Numbered from the stretch's first letter, positions 20,182 to 63,033 are shown. The stretch: DNA of 64,000 nucleotides from an uncultured Eubacteriales bacterium (GCA_964394075.1 CAYMVI010000001.1:167195-231194), one strand, 5' to 3'. Translations and numbers: made by a program. Notes: generated by a model not told the origin, from the letters alone.

Positions 20182-20790
20182 ATGTTACAAATAAAAAATC
20201 CAAAGTTTGAAATATCTGTAATGAATAAATCTCAATATCCTAAAAATAGAATGCCACAAATAGTGTTGGCAGGAAAATCAAATGTTGGTAAATCTTCGTT
20301 TGTTAATTGTTTGATTAATAGAAAGTCTTTGGCTAGAACAAGTAGTGAACCTGGAAAAACAAGACAAATAAATTTCTATAACATGGATGATATATTCTAT
20401 TTTGTAGATTTGCCTGGATACGGTTATTCAAAAATGTCTAAAGCGGAGCAACAAAAACTTGGACCTGCGATTGAAACGTTTTTGAAAAATTCAAAAAATA
20501 TAAACTTAATAATTTTATTAGTAGATATCAGACACAAACCTTCTGAAAATGATAAGATGATGATGGAATTTATTAAAAATACGGGTAACAGATATATCGT
20601 AGTTACATCTAAAGCTGATAAGATTGCTAAAACAAAAGTTCAATCTTACGTAGATGATATTGCTAAAGAATTAGATGTTGCGGATGATTTGATATTTGCT
20701 TTCTCTTCTGAAACAAAATTTAATAAGGAACTTATTTCTGATGTAATTGCTGAATCTTTGTTAACAGCAAAGACTTGGGATGAAGAATAG
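20182..20790 (+). CDS. engB: ribosome biogenesis GTPase YsxC/EngB
   Basis: GKSNVGKSS G1 motif in a 202-aa protein. Confidence 0.85.
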   Translation: MLQIKNPKFEISVMNKSQYPKNRMPQIVLAGKSNVGKSSFVNCLINRKSLARTSSEPGKTRQINFYNMDDIFYFVDLPGYGYSKMSKAEQQKLGPAIETFLKNSKNINLIILLVDIRHKPSENDKMMMEFIKNTGNRYIVVTSKADKIAKTKVQSYVDDIAKELDVADDLIFAFSSETKFNKELISDVIAESLLTAKTWDEE

Positions 20791-20888
20791 GTCCAAACGG
20801 GGACGTCCTCAATTGGACACCAAATAATGCTTAAAATTATTTATTACTTTAGGCAAGGTGTCCAATTGAGGACGTCCCCGTTTGGACA
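20790..20888. repeat. perfect 31-bp inverted repeat pair (GGTCCAAACGGGGACGTCCTCAATTGGACACC), a MITE/REP-like element abutting the engB stop
   Basis: The two arms are at 20790-20821 and 20858-20888 with a 36-nt AT-rich loop. The same unit recurs elsewhere in the window. Confidence 0.85.
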
Positions 20889-20890
20889 GT

Positions 20891-20925
20891 AAAACACGGT
20901 ATGCCAAAATGGTATGCCGTGTTTT
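20891..20925. terminator. bidirectional terminator
   Basis: Hairpin AAAACACGG..CCGTGTTTT flanked by A and T runs. Confidence 0.6.
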
Positions 20926-20936
20926 ACTATGTGTGT

Positions 20937-22376
20937 TTACTTCTTATCTTCGGATTCGCTGCCAGGCTTCTTTGCCCAGGGTTCTGCAGCTACGAGGATT
21001 TTTTTGATTTCATCGCCCATGAGGACTTCGTGCTCAAGCAGACCTTCGGCAAGTGCTTCGAGCGCAAGCGAATGTGTCTTGATGATTTCTTTTGTTTCGG
21101 CATAAACTCTCTTAAGATACTCGCGAGCAACAGTTTCAGTTCTCTTGAAAATATCTTCAGAGCAGAAGCCGTAATCATCATCGATGGCAATAGGACCGAT
21201 ATCAGAGTCCATGCCGAAATTCTGGAACATCATCAAAGCCAGAGCGGATGCGGAAGAAAGGTCAGCAGTTACACCAGAAGTGGTTTCGCCATATTTGAGT
21301 TCTTCAGCGGCCATACCACCAAAGGAATAAATAATTTGCTTGCGGCAGTCACTTTCGAACATAGAGAACTTCTCTTCACCAGCTTCTTCTTGGGTGAGAC
21401 CGAGGGATGCTGCACGAGGCGTGATTTCGACTCGACCAAGAATGTAGTCGGGATTAGAGTAGTATGCTGCGATAACATGACCAGCCTCATGATATGCGGT
21501 GGAACGACGTTCCTTTTCATTCATTTGGTTGTAGGTTTGACCTGCTTCCATTGCAAGCATAACGTCGTTGAAATCCTTGGAAGTAACGGCATCATGATGC
21601 TTACGTCTGGAGTAATGGATAGTTTCACGAACAATGAATTCGATGTCCTTGGGATACATACCAAGGGTGCATCTTGCCAGTCTCTCGGAAGAGACATCCG
21701 GCGCCAAATTTGCATCAAACATTTGGAAATACTCTTCGAACAGAGCCTTTCTGGTAGGCAAAGTCGGAGGCATGATTTGGATGACTTTGTTCTGATAGAA
21801 CGCATTGGGAGAGAAGTACGCCTTAGGAAGGGCAATCCTATCCTCGATGGTAGACAGAACGATGACGGTGTTTGTGGATTCTGTGATTTTCTGAGTCAGC
21901 TGGCTATGGAAAAGCATGAGCCGTTCAGCAGGGATTCCCTGCAGTGCGCTGAGATTCTGGATGTGCATTACGCAACCTTTTTTGAAGGAGCTTGCAACGA
22001 AGAAGAGTGCATTAAGCAGTTTCTCCGATTTCTTAAAGTAAGAAACGAAAGAAGTGGAGATGTCCACAGTGATAAGGGGACAATTAGCTTCTTTTGCAAG
22101 GCCTGCAACAAGGACCGTTTTGCCGGAACCAGAAGCACCAGCCATAAGGAAACGGGAATGGGGTGCGTGAACGGGGTCGTGCTGATACTGCTTGAGGTGT
22201 TTCAGGAACTCGAGCGCATCGCTCAATTCCTCTCTTTCGCTTTCCATGCCGATGATTTCAGAAGTTTTTTTGCCGATGTCCTGCGGAAGCGTAATGCGAA
22301 TGTAGTGCTTCTGCAGAAACGCGATTTTGGACTTGAGCTGCGCATCTTTCACAGATTTGACAAGACTTTGTTTCAT
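20937..22376 (-). CDS. soluble FtsH-like protein: degenerate AAA+ domain plus an intact M41 zinc-metalloprotease domain, compositionally foreign
   Basis: It carries a GASGSGKT Walker A. The Walker B position reads VMHIQN and the SRH arginines are lost. HEAGHVIA and the downstream FGGMAAEE are intact. There is no transmembrane segment. GC is about 50%. The RBS is a strong AAGGAGG. Confidence 0.7.
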   Translation of the reverse strand: MKQSLVKSVKDAQLKSKIAFLQKHYIRITLPQDIGKKTSEIIGMESEREELSDALEFLKHLKQYQHDPVHAPHSRFLMAGASGSGKTVLVAGLAKEANCPLITVDISTSFVSYFKKSEKLLNALFFVASSFKKGCVMHIQNLSALQGIPAERLMLFHSQLTQKITESTNTVIVLSTIEDRIALPKAYFSPNAFYQNKVIQIMPPTLPTRKALFEEYFQMFDANLAPDVSSERLARCTLGMYPKDIEFIVRETIHYSRRKHHDAVTSKDFNDVMLAMEAGQTYNQMNEKERRSTAYHEAGHVIAAYYSNPDYILGRVEITPRAASLGLTQEEAGEEKFSMFESDCRKQIIYSFGGMAAEELKYGETTSGVTADLSSASALALMMFQNFGMDSDIGPIAIDDDYGFCSEDIFKRTETVAREYLKRVYAETKEIIKTHSLALEALAEGLLEHEVLMGDEIKKILVAAEPWAKKPGSESEDKK

Positions 22377-22706
22377 AAACGGAATACCTCCTTTATGCTG
22401 GGATAAAATATGCTGCTAAGCGGTTTTTATTATATACAGGTTTGCTTTGAAAAGTCAATGGCAAAAACAGGCAATAAGCTTAGGGAAATAAGAGGTTTAC
22501 GGATTTTAGAAACAAAAACACTTAACATAATATAAAAAAGGGAAGAAAAATTTTCTTTCCTAGGGATATTGCAACCTTCAGGCTTTCTAGGGTTTGGGGG
22601 TTGTTTTTGCTGAAAAAGTAATGGTAAAATTAATATATAACAAGAAATTGTTATTATAATTATGTACACATTGATAAAATTTTTAAAGCAAAAGAGGTGA
22701 TTTTGT

Positions 22707-23996
22707 ATGAGAAAAATAGTTGTTGCTGGAATTATGGTTGTGGCTTTATCTGGATCATGTGTATCTGCTGCTGAACGTGTGAGTTTAGGCTATATTTATA
22801 GCACATCAAAATCTCATACAGAAATAGTTGCAGGTACTCAAGGTGGCGTTAACGTAGTTTCTCCTACATGCTTTGATTTAACAATGAAAGGTCATTTAGA
22901 TGTTAAAGAAATCATGGATGAAGAATTCGTTAGCAATATGCATGCTCAAGGTATTAAAGTAACTCCATTCTTAAGTAATCATTGGGGACAAAAACGTGCT
23001 CAAGCAGCTCTTAAGAATGCCGATGTTTTGATTCCTGAAATTATCGCTGCTATTGAGGAATATGATTTCGATGGTGTTAATGTTGACTTGGAAAATTTAA
23101 AAGCAAGTGACAGAGATAGTTTAACTGAATTTATGAGAAAATTAAGAGAAGCTATGCCAAAAGAAAAAACAGTTTCAATAGCTGTTGCACCTAACCCTGA
23201 AAATACAACTAACACATGGCTTGCAGCATACGATTATGAGAATCTTGCAAAACATGCTGATTATTTAGTTGTTATGGCGTATGATGAACATTGTTATGGT
23301 GGTGCTGAAGGCCCTGTAGCAAGTATCGATTATGTTGAAAAATCTTTAACATCAATCTTAGAAGTTGTTTCAAAAGATAAGATTGTTTTAGGCTTACCAA
23401 TGTATGGTCGTTTCTGGGAAGTAGGAGCGCCAACTGGTGGTGAAGCAATTATCAATGCACAAACACCAAAAATTATCAAACAATTTAAAGTTGTACCTAA
23501 CTATATTGAAAAAGAAGGTACTCCTATGATGCAAGTTAAAGTAAAAGAAGGACAAAAAGGTCCATATGTAAATGGCAGATATTTGGATGCTGGCACATAC
23601 AATATCTGGTACGAAAATGAAAGAAGTATTAAAGAAAAACTTGCACTAATTAATGAGTATGATATTTTAGGTTCTGCTTTATGGGCATTAGATAATGAAG
23701 ACACATCAATGTGGAATTATTACAAGAACTGTTTAAATGAGATTCCTTATGAAAGCGAAGAAGAAATTGAAATTAGACAGAAGATGGAATATGCAATGCA
23801 ATACATTGTGGATGAAGTTATAGAAATTAAATTAGTGTCTGATGAAATTAGAAATTACATCGCATACAGATATAACAATCTTCCTCAAAAAGTACAATCT
23901 TTATCAAAAACGAATATTAACGCATTTGTGAAGTATGCGTTAATACCAAGCAATTCACATCACTATACAAAATTAGTGAAGAAATATGCTTGCTAA
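22707..23996 (+). CDS. secreted glycoside hydrolase family 18 (chitinase / YaaH/YdhD-like)
   Basis: Signal peptide and the catalytic motif DGVNVDLE. Confidence 0.75.
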   Translation: MRKIVVAGIMVVALSGSCVSAAERVSLGYIYSTSKSHTEIVAGTQGGVNVVSPTCFDLTMKGHLDVKEIMDEEFVSNMHAQGIKVTPFLSNHWGQKRAQAALKNADVLIPEIIAAIEEYDFDGVNVDLENLKASDRDSLTEFMRKLREAMPKEKTVSIAVAPNPENTTNTWLAAYDYENLAKHADYLVVMAYDEHCYGGAEGPVASIDYVEKSLTSILEVVSKDKIVLGLPMYGRFWEVGAPTGGEAIINAQTPKIIKQFKVVPNYIEKEGTPMMQVKVKEGQKGPYVNGRYLDAGTYNIWYENERSIKEKLALINEYDILGSALWALDNEDTSMWNYYKNCLNEIPYESEEEIEIRQKMEYAMQYIVDEVIEIKLVSDEIRNYIAYRYNNLPQKVQSLSKTNINAFVKYALIPSNSHHYTKLVKKYAC

Positions 23997-62791: not shown

Positions 62792-62801
62792 TGGTTTAGG
62801 C

Positions 62802-62830
62802 TTGCAATTTAGGATTATTTGAAATAAAAT
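62802..62830 (+). promoter_or_regulatory. sigma-A-type promoter driving the leader ORF and the pilin-like paralog B
   Basis: TTGCAA, a 17-bp spacer and TAAAAT. Confidence 0.5.
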
Positions 62831-62858
62831 GGTAGTAGCATACGAAGGAGGAATTGTT

Positions 62859-62924
62859 ATGAGATTTAAAATAGAACGTGTAACCGTTGGGGCTCTACAC
62901 ACACACACACACACACACGGATAG
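62859..62924 (+). CDS. 21-aa leader peptide MRFKIERVTVGALHTHTHTHG whose 3' half is encoded by the (AC)11 tract
   Basis: A perfect RBS AAGGAGG lies 7 nt upstream. The ORF ends 37 nt before a strong terminator. Confidence 0.45.
   Translation: MRFKIERVTVGALHTHTHTHG
62897..62918. repeat. (AC)11 dinucleotide microsatellite
   Basis: 22-nt perfect AC run, unusual in a 30% GC genome. Confidence 0.9.
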
Positions 62925-62960
62925 TTTTTTAATAAAATTAAATAGAAGAGAATAGTTTAA

Positions 62961-62994
62961 GCACTCGTTGATGTTATGTCAACGAGTGCTTTTT
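62961..62994 (+). terminator. intrinsic terminator/attenuator between the leader ORF and the pilin-like gene
   Basis: GCACTCGTTGA tgttatg TCAACGAGTGC followed by T5. Confidence 0.7.
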
Positions 62995-63005
62995 GTGTTT
63001 TGCGT

Positions 63006-63033
63006 GTCCAAGTGAGGACGTCCCCAATTGGAC
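63006..63033. repeat. palindromic repeat unit copy
   Basis: GTCCAAGTGAGGACGTCCCCAATTGGAC. Confidence 0.8.

Follow-up and report, generated by a model that had tools for sequence, protein, structure and literature searches.

A stretch of 64,000 nucleotides from an uncultured Eubacteriales bacterium (CAYMVI010000001.1:167195-231194 of GCA_964394075.1; the window, abbreviated W in comparisons) carries a GC-rich palindromic repeat whose copies lie at or close to the ends of genes. This raises the question of what the repeated unit is, how its copies came to occupy these positions, and whether the family is of a kind already known. The reading that we favor, with a probability of roughly 0.6, is that the repeats form an undescribed, lineage-specific family of hairpin doublets of the repetitive extragenic palindromic (REP) or REPIN type in low-GC Clostridia.

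The basic sequence, referred to here as the arm, is 28 bp long and self-complementary (GTCCAAAC GGGGACGYCCTC ATTTGGAC), with a GC content of 57% in a window of 32% GC. When the consensus GTCCAAAYGGGGACGYCCTCANTTGGAC was searched with up to 3 mismatches, seven full arms were found in the window (0.00 expected, from 100 shuffles), at 20791(+), 20860(-), 25734(+), 25777(-), 62628(+), 62764(-) and 63006(-). The 12-nt core GGGGACGYCCTC occurs nine times in the 64 kb against an expectation of 0.01, adding two 21-nt partial copies, and a search for GTCCAA-N16-TTGGAC added a degenerate copy at 62663-62690. The census is then seven full arms, two partial arms and two degenerate relatives, with none expected by chance. 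The family is therefore present where a first, sequence-only reading of this DNA had put it, far above the level of shuffled sequence, with coordinates 1 to 2 nt away from those first given. That reading had assigned GTCCAA/TTGGAC ends to every copy, which holds as the general form, but the arms at 25.7 kb begin with GACC instead of GTCC, and the terminal pairing of the arm itself is thereby broken. Overall, arms start with GTCC or GACC and finish with GGAC or GGTC, and CGTC is found only centrally. The dyad symmetry of each arm is centered on GACGTC, and a single arm has a 6-bp outer stem, a 2x2 internal loop and a 4-bp inner stem.

For comparison we used the metagenome-assembled genome (MAG) CAZEVD01 (GCA_964515475.1, "uncultured Eubacteriales bacterium"; M), the uncultured sister genome GCA_054275015.1 (J), two ENA assemblies (E41, also uncultured, and E44), a further genome from SRR29277971 (L049) and a more distant relative, GCA_017462965.1 (L052). 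The window and M are about 82-90% identical, with 82% across 16 kb of synteny and a background of 82-87%, and the closest relatives are J (88%) and E41 (88%) for the window and E44 (88%) for M. Judged from these identities, the source of the window is evidently not genome M, and the two are not sister lineages.

The 28-mer had been proposed as the recurring unit, a view that had to be replaced: the actual unit is an inverted doublet composed of an arm, an AT-rich spacer and an inverted arm. The two clearest examples in the window, with their parts, are as follows.

20791-20887, doublet 1: arm 20791-20818 (+), 41-nt AT-rich spacer, arm 20860-20887 (-)
20888-20928 (+), ordinary intrinsic terminator directly downstream of doublet 1
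25709-25829, doublet 2: perfect 121-bp palindrome that fills the intergenic space between pyrG and rqcH, which converge on it
25713-25733, partial arm of doublet 2
25734-25761, full arm of doublet 2, followed by a 15-nt spacer
25777-25804, full arm of doublet 2
25805-25825, partial arm of doublet 2

All 18 doublets of the window and M are head to head (+ then -), with 0 to 2 mismatches between the arms. Total length is 66-103 bp, with a short non-coding core between the inverted repeats. Spacer lengths are of two kinds, 10-16 and 35-47 nt, with one exception of 108 nt, and complementarity mostly continues for a few bases into the spacers (GGACACTT...AAGTGTCC). Folding predictions give a single long hairpin, with near-perfect pairing, for a doublet as single-stranded DNA or RNA: the RNA folds have energies of -57 to -125 kcal/mol (z -14 to -22) and the DNA folds z values of -15 and -23, compared with just -10 to -11 kcal/mol (z about -2) for a single arm as RNA. 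Doublet 1, with 0 inter-arm mismatches, gave one RNA hairpin of -67.6 kcal/mol (z -15.7), and doublet 2 gave -124.5 kcal/mol (z -21.8). The "four copies" first counted within the palindrome of doublet 2 are indeed four arms, two of which are only partial.

In an alignment of 19 doublets, inter-arm pairing was 98.6%, and 5 of the 28 pairs were changed on both sides (19 cells), a level of inter-arm covariation that none of 500 shuffles reached. No compensatory change was found inside a single arm in the same alignment, and the second base pair of the arm is broken in all GACC variants, indicating that it is the pairing between the arms that is maintained. The repeated and constrained unit is thus the doublet rather than the single arm. 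The same conclusion extends to larger changes, as several doublets have part of the arm duplicated in tandem, in mirror image on the two sides, with 21+28 nt in the window and 19+19+25 nt at the same site in M, and further examples in L009, L015 and L052. Mirrored duplications are beyond the reach of independent compensatory mutation and indicate that one arm was copied from the other; the two arms of a doublet evolve in concert. Intrastrand template switching, or correction, at quasipalindromes is an established process able to copy arm to arm (PMC7202029), and by analogy we infer that it may be the cause of the arm symmetry.

The family is not confined to the window. When 185,579 species, represented by one genome apiece, were scanned with the query CCAANNGGGGACGYCCTCNNTTGG, M was the only genome to contain the arm, at 15 loci, 13 of which have a + copy followed by a - copy 39-75 bp later. 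M has about 35 arms. The 28-bp arm is also carried by L049. Contigs 98.6-100% identical to the window (one of 2.6 kb at 100%) were found in runs of the series SRR143076xx, as were contigs with the exact EngB protein of M, and most of these window-like and M-like contigs stop inside or just past the first arm, as typically happens where a multicopy repeat interrupts a de Bruijn assembly. A 20-nt arm pattern gave 18 single matches in JGI metagenomes and 2 in IMG/VR, none with a full arm or a partner; as all of these lie in contigs of 47-69% GC, they were taken to be chance matches. BLAST searches of plasmids and phages with a whole doublet found none, Rfam 15 gave no doublet match at the gathering score (at E<=1 it yielded only sub-threshold, generic long-hairpin matches to miRNA precursors), and a literature search with core sequence strings returned only unrelated primer matches.

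To see what occupies the same positions in relatives, five intergenic sites were compared across the sister genomes. Between the convergent engB and ftsH-like genes, doublet 1 starts directly 3' of the engB stop codon (TAG, 20788-20790), and M has a near-identical doublet in the same place with one 1-nt indel in the spacer. In J the doublet is absent and the site holds a bidirectional terminator only. In E41 two terminators enclose a short, single relative (cGTCCAACGGGGACACCCATTGGACg), and E44 has a single variant hairpin with the loop TGAGTCCGTCCCCAA. The ordinary terminator at 20888-20928 means that doublet 1 is not the sole 3' structure after engB. Between pyrG and rqcH, a palindrome with a GGGGAC core is present in W, M, J and E44; the arm sequence differs from genome to genome, each being internally symmetric, and in J the palindrome has the plain form of a bidirectional terminator (A-tract, GC stem, T-tract). 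E41 has an extra gene and an ordinary terminator here, and no palindrome. The extra gene, in the palindrome's place (contig L041, 15521-16264), encodes an Rce1-like protease.

At the 3' end of a hexapeptide-repeat transferase gene (61977-62672 in the window), the arm is found in W, M and L049, while in J the protein ends in IDLLMK* and is followed by an ordinary terminator and a nuoE-like gene. In L049 a doublet replaces the last six codons of the transferase and the terminator, and the same downstream gene as in J follows. In W and M all sequence downstream of the transferase differs from that of J, with W-J homology ending at 62623, 5 nt short of the arm. The site upstream of DUF4364 holds a complete doublet in M, one variant arm in E44 and a decayed remnant in L051. 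Between DUF4364 and spoU, M has a doublet over the stop codon and E44 an ordinary terminator within a weak inverted repeat; in L052 (3560-3720), where DUF4364 shows 79% amino acid identity, the site holds a perfect, roughly 130-bp palindrome whose arms are duplicated in tandem (TCATCAACGGGGACAGCCCTTT), indicating that GGGGAC-core palindromes reach past the immediate genus-level group.

All lineage variants keep the core GGGGAC(G)NCC, with differing sequence around it, and the pyrG|rqcH and DUF4364|spoU sites are occupied across genomes that are 80-88% identical. The GGGGAC-core superfamily is thus a long-standing occupant of these intergenic positions, and the 28-bp GTCCAA...TTGGAC family is the form of it that was amplified or homogenized in W, M and L049. 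Genome J lacks the 28-bp family at all of its sites that were seen. No target-site duplication flanks any of the 18 doublets or is seen in the L049-J and M-E44 comparisons, and no clean empty site with defined boundaries was found, the adjoining intergenic DNA being remodeled as well in every comparison.

The neighbors of the elements are housekeeping genes (engB, pyrG, rqcH, prfA/B, rlmH, GNAT, sigma factors, a recN-like gene and DUF4364). About 13 of the 18 loci lie directly 3' of a gene, four doublets lie between convergent genes, and two M doublets (L016 and L018b) lie between divergent genes. All copies are intergenic apart from overlap with three ORF ends, and at eight element ends a stop codon is overlapped or lies no more than 4 nt away. 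In E. coli, REPs located within 15 nt of a stop codon are reported to lower translation (Liang, Rudd and Deutscher 2015). The claim that the elements abut or overlap stop codons, that of engB included, was thus borne out; the further claim that they have remodeled C-termini applies to one protein only. EngB ends in ...TWDEE* in W, J and E41 (...TYENQ* in E44), and only its stop codon changes, from TAA to TAG. RqcH ends in ...TI(V/I)VE* in all genomes compared. The C-termini of both proteins are therefore unchanged in relatives without the 28-bp family at these sites, and the last codon and stop of rqcH, which the repeat had been thought to supply, more likely belong to the gene. The gene assignment at this site also needed correction, as the gene ending at 25708 is pyrG (CTP synthase) and rqcH (NFACT) is the minus-strand gene at 25824-27524. 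The last codon and TGA stop of rqcH (25824-25829) are overlapped by the outer 4 nt of doublet 2 (gaat/attc) together with the GA of the arm, and the left end of the doublet (gaatga) mirrors them. Most simply, as we infer it, outward growth of the palindrome carried a copy of the gene end to the other side, and the repeat did not supply the codons.

The exception is the transferase, which lies at the start of a cluster of arms at 62.6 kb.

61977-62672 (+), hexapeptide-repeat transferase; last 14 codons and stop from the repeat region
62628-62655 (+), arm within the 3' end of the transferase ORF, encoding VQMGTSSLG(Q)
62663-62690 (+), degenerate arm (ATCCAAATAGGTACCCCCTTTTTTGGAC) in tandem with the arm at 62628; holds the ORF stop codon (62670-62672)
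62699-62730 (+), ordinary intrinsic terminator, between the + arms and the - arm of the cluster
62764-62791 (-), arm, partner of 62628; the 108-nt "spacer" contains the degenerate arm and the terminator
63006-63033 (-), solo arm just upstream of the next gene (ATG at about 63055), after a terminator at 62959-62991

Homologs of the transferase are 219-224 amino acids long, and those of close relatives end in IDLLMK*, whereas the proteins of W, M and L049 end in VQMGTSSLG(Q/H)..., with VQMGTSSLG encoded by GTC CAA ATG GGG ACG TCC TCA CTT GGA. The repeat had been held to supply the end of this ORF, and it does so for the last 14 codons and the stop. The change from IDLLMK* to VQMGTSSLGQFESK* is the only real C-terminal remodeling. 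The degenerate arm is better preserved in M (TCCAAATAGGGACGCCCTTTTTTGGAC), where it matches a hidden Markov model of the arm with E=0.001. Clustering of the repeats around foreign or phase-variable loci, also suggested earlier, describes the 62.6-kb cluster, which lies exactly at a break in synteny with a sister genome, but not the copies elsewhere.

A tiny ORF with a good ribosome-binding site (62859-62925) lies between two arms of the 62.6-kb cluster. It contains a repeat that is (CA)10 in the window (62898-62917) and (CA)8 in M (L006, 6815-6830), a difference that shifts the frame. This ORF, upstream of the gene starting at about 63055, is possibly a phase-variable or leader-peptide-like element.

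Copying has also taken place between loci. Spacers are homologous at unrelated loci (L010/L015, z=9.0; L009/L011 in reverse, z=6.7; L013/L015, z=4.3) while their flanks are unrelated, which indicates that whole doublets were copied from one locus to another. Between the window and M, two tracts of high identity were found. The first, at about 18100-20887, is 96-99% identical against a background of 82%, with W-J identity of 90-94% there; its boundary coincides with the right end of the engB doublet (20887), after which W-M identity is 66-75%. The second, at 61966-63200, is 90-97% identical compared with about 87% upstream, and spans the transferase and the repeat cluster. Vertical conservation of the engB and transferase doublets in W and M was rejected, as the tract identity exceeds both the 82-87% background and the identity of the window to its closer relative J. 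These same relationships imply that the engB and transferase loci were exchanged by interspecies homologous recombination between W and M, which occur in the same run series. No high-identity W-M tract is present at pyrG|rqcH, and the arms of W and M have diverged symmetrically.

A test for a cognate REP-associated tyrosine transposase (RAYT) had been suggested, and none was detected in 283 kb of DNA from the genus, a fraction of each genome. Pfam searches of 30 ORFs flanking the elements in W and M found no transposase, recombinase or integrase domain, five of the ORFs having no match. The tblastn searches of the 283 kb with E. coli TnpA-REP (a query identical to PDB 4ER8) and IS608 TnpA gave nothing below E=0.8, a two-query search that is not very sensitive, and a scan of the same DNA for HUH/Tyr motifs found nothing. 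Group 1 RAYTs have been placed in Clostridia and are not among the groups tied to abundant REPs (PMC5581495).

Under the REP/REPIN-type reading, the arms would stay symmetric through intrastrand template switching at the hairpin (quasipalindrome correction), through selection acting on the hairpin, or through both. Template switching could also extend a palindrome outward as far as the coding sequence, which would account for elements that end precisely at a stop codon. Dispersal would depend on a trans-acting enzyme, for which our best guess, a conjecture, is a putative HUH/RAYT-like single-strand transposase acting on the hairpin, and spread between species would take place by homologous recombination. 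Where a terminator has been displaced, the hairpin probably acts as the 3'-end structure of the transcript, in a co-opted role and not as the reason for the family. Several observations weigh against this reading. The arm is without the GTAG (or CGTC) end tag of the described REP superfamilies, the copy number is low (about 35 arms in M), most spacers cannot be aligned, and no RAYT/IS200-type or other transposase lies beside any element or in the 283 kb. There is neither a target-site duplication nor a clean empty site, and in L049 versus J and M versus E44 the element replaces sequence instead of merely interrupting it. Moreover, many sites were occupied anciently, and the similarity within a genome may therefore reflect gene conversion among resident palindromes rather than transposition.

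The main rival takes up this last point and holds that the doublets are functional RNA hairpins at transcript 3' ends (bidirectional terminators or mRNA stabilizers), similar by descent and gene conversion and not mobile. The placement of most doublets directly 3' of a gene, with four between convergent genes, is what it would predict, and palindromes at pyrG|rqcH and DUF4364|spoU are shared by several sister genomes, the J element at the former having the canonical bidirectional-terminator form. The elements occupy the positions of ordinary terminators in relatives, and no other terminator is present at pyrG|rqcH in W, M and E44, nor after the L049 transferase. We nevertheless consider this explanation unlikely. 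A consensus scan called the ordinary terminators at 20888, 62699 and 62959 and none of the doublets, whose loops are 10-47 nt long and usually lack a T-run; the second arm in L049 is followed by an A-run, not a T-run. In the window, engB and the transferase each have a separate canonical terminator adjoining the element, M doublets L016 and L018b lie between divergent genes, and the engB variant of E41/E44 sits between two convergent terminators, where little transcription is expected. Near-identical 28-bp arms and common spacers at unrelated loci also require a copying process. A canonical intrinsic terminator (GC stem, 3-8 nt loop, T-run) was rejected as a general description of the doublets, as the scan did not call them and only the J ortholog fits.

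Descent from insertion sequences (IS) as miniature inverted-repeat transposable elements (MITEs), with the arms as terminal inverted repeats of 28-32 bp moved by a DDE transposase, would account for dispersed elements of 66-103 bp with inverted repeats around a short non-coding core, and for the homology of some cores. Most cores are unrelated, however, each putative terminal repeat is itself palindromic, and no target-site duplication was seen among the 18 doublets or in the filled-versus-other comparisons. There is no transposase-sized ORF between arms, the only gene between two doublets being the housekeeping DUF4364, present in all relatives, and no transposase or parent IS was found in the genus DNA searched. 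We therefore regard a MITE origin as improbable; of the REP/BIME/MITE type first proposed, the dispersed, GC-rich palindromic REP/BIME (bacterial interspersed mosaic element) character stands and the MITE part is unsupported. Similarly improbable is the view that the arms are sites for a host protein, such as a dimeric protein on the 14-bp half-site GTCCAAAYGRGGAC, a tyrosine recombinase on a dif-like 11-6-11 core, or a BIME-style gyrase or nucleoid-protein site. The dyad symmetry of the arms around GACGTC, the GGGGAC(G)NCC core kept in all lineage variants, the position of the 62.6-kb cluster at a synteny break and that of the engB doublet on the border of a recombination tract are all consistent with it. 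Yet the covariation is arm to arm and not within the dyad, which the GACC variants break, two recombination sites could not synapse across spacers as short as 10-16 nt, no gene for a recombinase or regulator is linked to the elements among the flanking ORFs, and the positions are at 3' ends rather than at promoters. Three further identities were rejected, as judged from anatomy: a CRISPR mini-array, as the repeats are inverted, asymmetric positions are mirrored, complementarity runs into the spacer (ACTT...AAGT) and one spacer class is 10-16 nt; a DNA uptake sequence, as the copy number is far too low; and a dif/Xer-type or invertible-switch site, given the 10-16 nt spacers and the lack of a linked recombinase.

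A more speculative version of the REP/REPIN-type reading, which we hold to be doubtful, is that of a REPIN-like replicator outside the Proteobacteria which, with no classical GTAG-recognizing RAYT, would home to and overwrite palindromes and intrinsic terminators, with symmetry kept by template switching and passage on recombination tracts. Such overwriting would explain sites that are conserved genus-wide while their sequence is replaced lineage by lineage, and passage between co-resident species would occur on short tracts edged by the palindrome itself.

On present evidence the doublet family is not a new kind of system. A REPIN is defined as two inverted REPs less than 130 bp apart, each with a short palindrome, around a variable spacer (bioRxiv 10.1101/2021.07.10.451892). 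The doublets resemble the REPINs of Pseudomonas fluorescens and E. coli in being inverted palindromic pairs within that distance, with conserved arms, a variable spacer and a predicted long hairpin, and in having tens of extragenic copies by housekeeping genes, persistence at orthologous sites, singlets and degenerate remnants. They differ in their host (low-GC Clostridia, not Proteobacteria), in the missing GTAG tag and low copy number, in a longer arm (28 bp) that is almost fully self-complementary and carries mirrored partial tandem duplications, and in that no RAYT was found in the 283 kb. Unlike REPINs, which are described as vertically inherited, two doublet loci appear to have been exchanged between species by recombination. 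By analogy, then, the family would work like REP/REPIN doublets without being filed as a REPIN-RAYT system.

In the GTAG/CGTC-tagged REP families, head-to-head dimers predominate, with conserved or variable spacers of 20-100 bp; families have 20-100 units, some inside ORF ends, and CGTC families are found without a dedicated transposase (Di Nocera et al. 2013, PMC3733652). The doublets share with these and with E. coli BIMEs the head-to-head dimers and the occasional units inside ORF ends. Unlike them they have no terminal GTAG/CGTC, and the arm, with its 6-bp and 4-bp stems around a 2x2 internal loop, departs from the described geometry of 8-9 bp stems and 4-5 nt loops (PMC3733652). Repeats of the REP/REPIN type have been studied in depth in Proteobacteria. 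A word search of PMC3733652 found no mention of Firmicutes or Clostridia, and in two REP/RAYT surveys taken together (PMC3733652 and PMC5581495) Firmicutes are unmentioned and Clostridia appear once, for the Group 1 RAYTs.

Two other classes of repeat are also comparable in part. Rickettsia palindromic elements insert in frame into genes, are longer and lie internal to many ORFs. Like them, the present repeat encodes part of a host protein, the transferase tail VQMGTSSLGQFESK, but the doublet family affects one gene only, at its extreme 3' end and by replacement of the tail. Inverted pairs of DNA uptake sequences or uptake signal sequences serve as terminators in Neisseria and Haemophilus, in thousands of copies. 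The doublets are like these pairs and like bidirectional terminators in having a short conserved motif in inverted pairs right after genes, often between convergent genes. They are unlike them in that most have no T-run, their loops are far longer, they number about 35 copies and occur also between divergent genes, and canonical terminators coexist beside them.

The family is compact and tractable, with several genus-level genomes carrying different states of the same sites. In these comparisons the arms of a doublet are directly seen to have been copied from each other, and elements to take over terminator positions, to be able to rewrite a protein C-terminus and, as far as the identity tracts indicate, to be able to move between species via homologous recombination. 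In practical terms, the arms break short-read assemblies of these MAGs and could be used as markers of the lineage. A cognate enzyme, should there be one, would widen both the range of hosts and the sequence rules of REPIN-type systems; otherwise the family would exemplify repeat homogenization without a transposase.

The variant copy noted earlier at 59831 exists, in the form of a hairpin.

59831-59865, variant hairpin, TTGTCCCAC-N17-GTGGGACAA, loop TGAGTCCGTCCCCAA

It is located between a terminator and the promoter region of the glmS ribozyme and is conserved in W, J and M. In E44, the loop TGAGTCCGTCCCCAA recurs after engB with a different stem, and upstream of DUF4364 as GTCCAAAAAGGGGACGGACTC. 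This hairpin may represent a second, related hairpin family or a regulatory site. The glmS ribozyme itself (59952-60113), upstream of glmS (60149-61963), scored above the Rfam gathering score. In J (L040, 2805-3779), a single inserted gene, with an NADase_transloc domain, is located just after the ortholog of the window's 59177-59782 ORF.

Elsewhere in the window, the ftsH-like gene next to doublet 1 (20937-22376, minus strand), which encodes an AAA/M41 protease, is 66-75% identical between two clades while its flanks are about 90% identical, and lies in a locally GC-richer stretch (39%). An antisense ORF of 501 amino acids lies over it (20901-22406, plus strand), with no Pfam match. A 6S RNA gene at 51387-51588 likewise scored above the Rfam gathering score.

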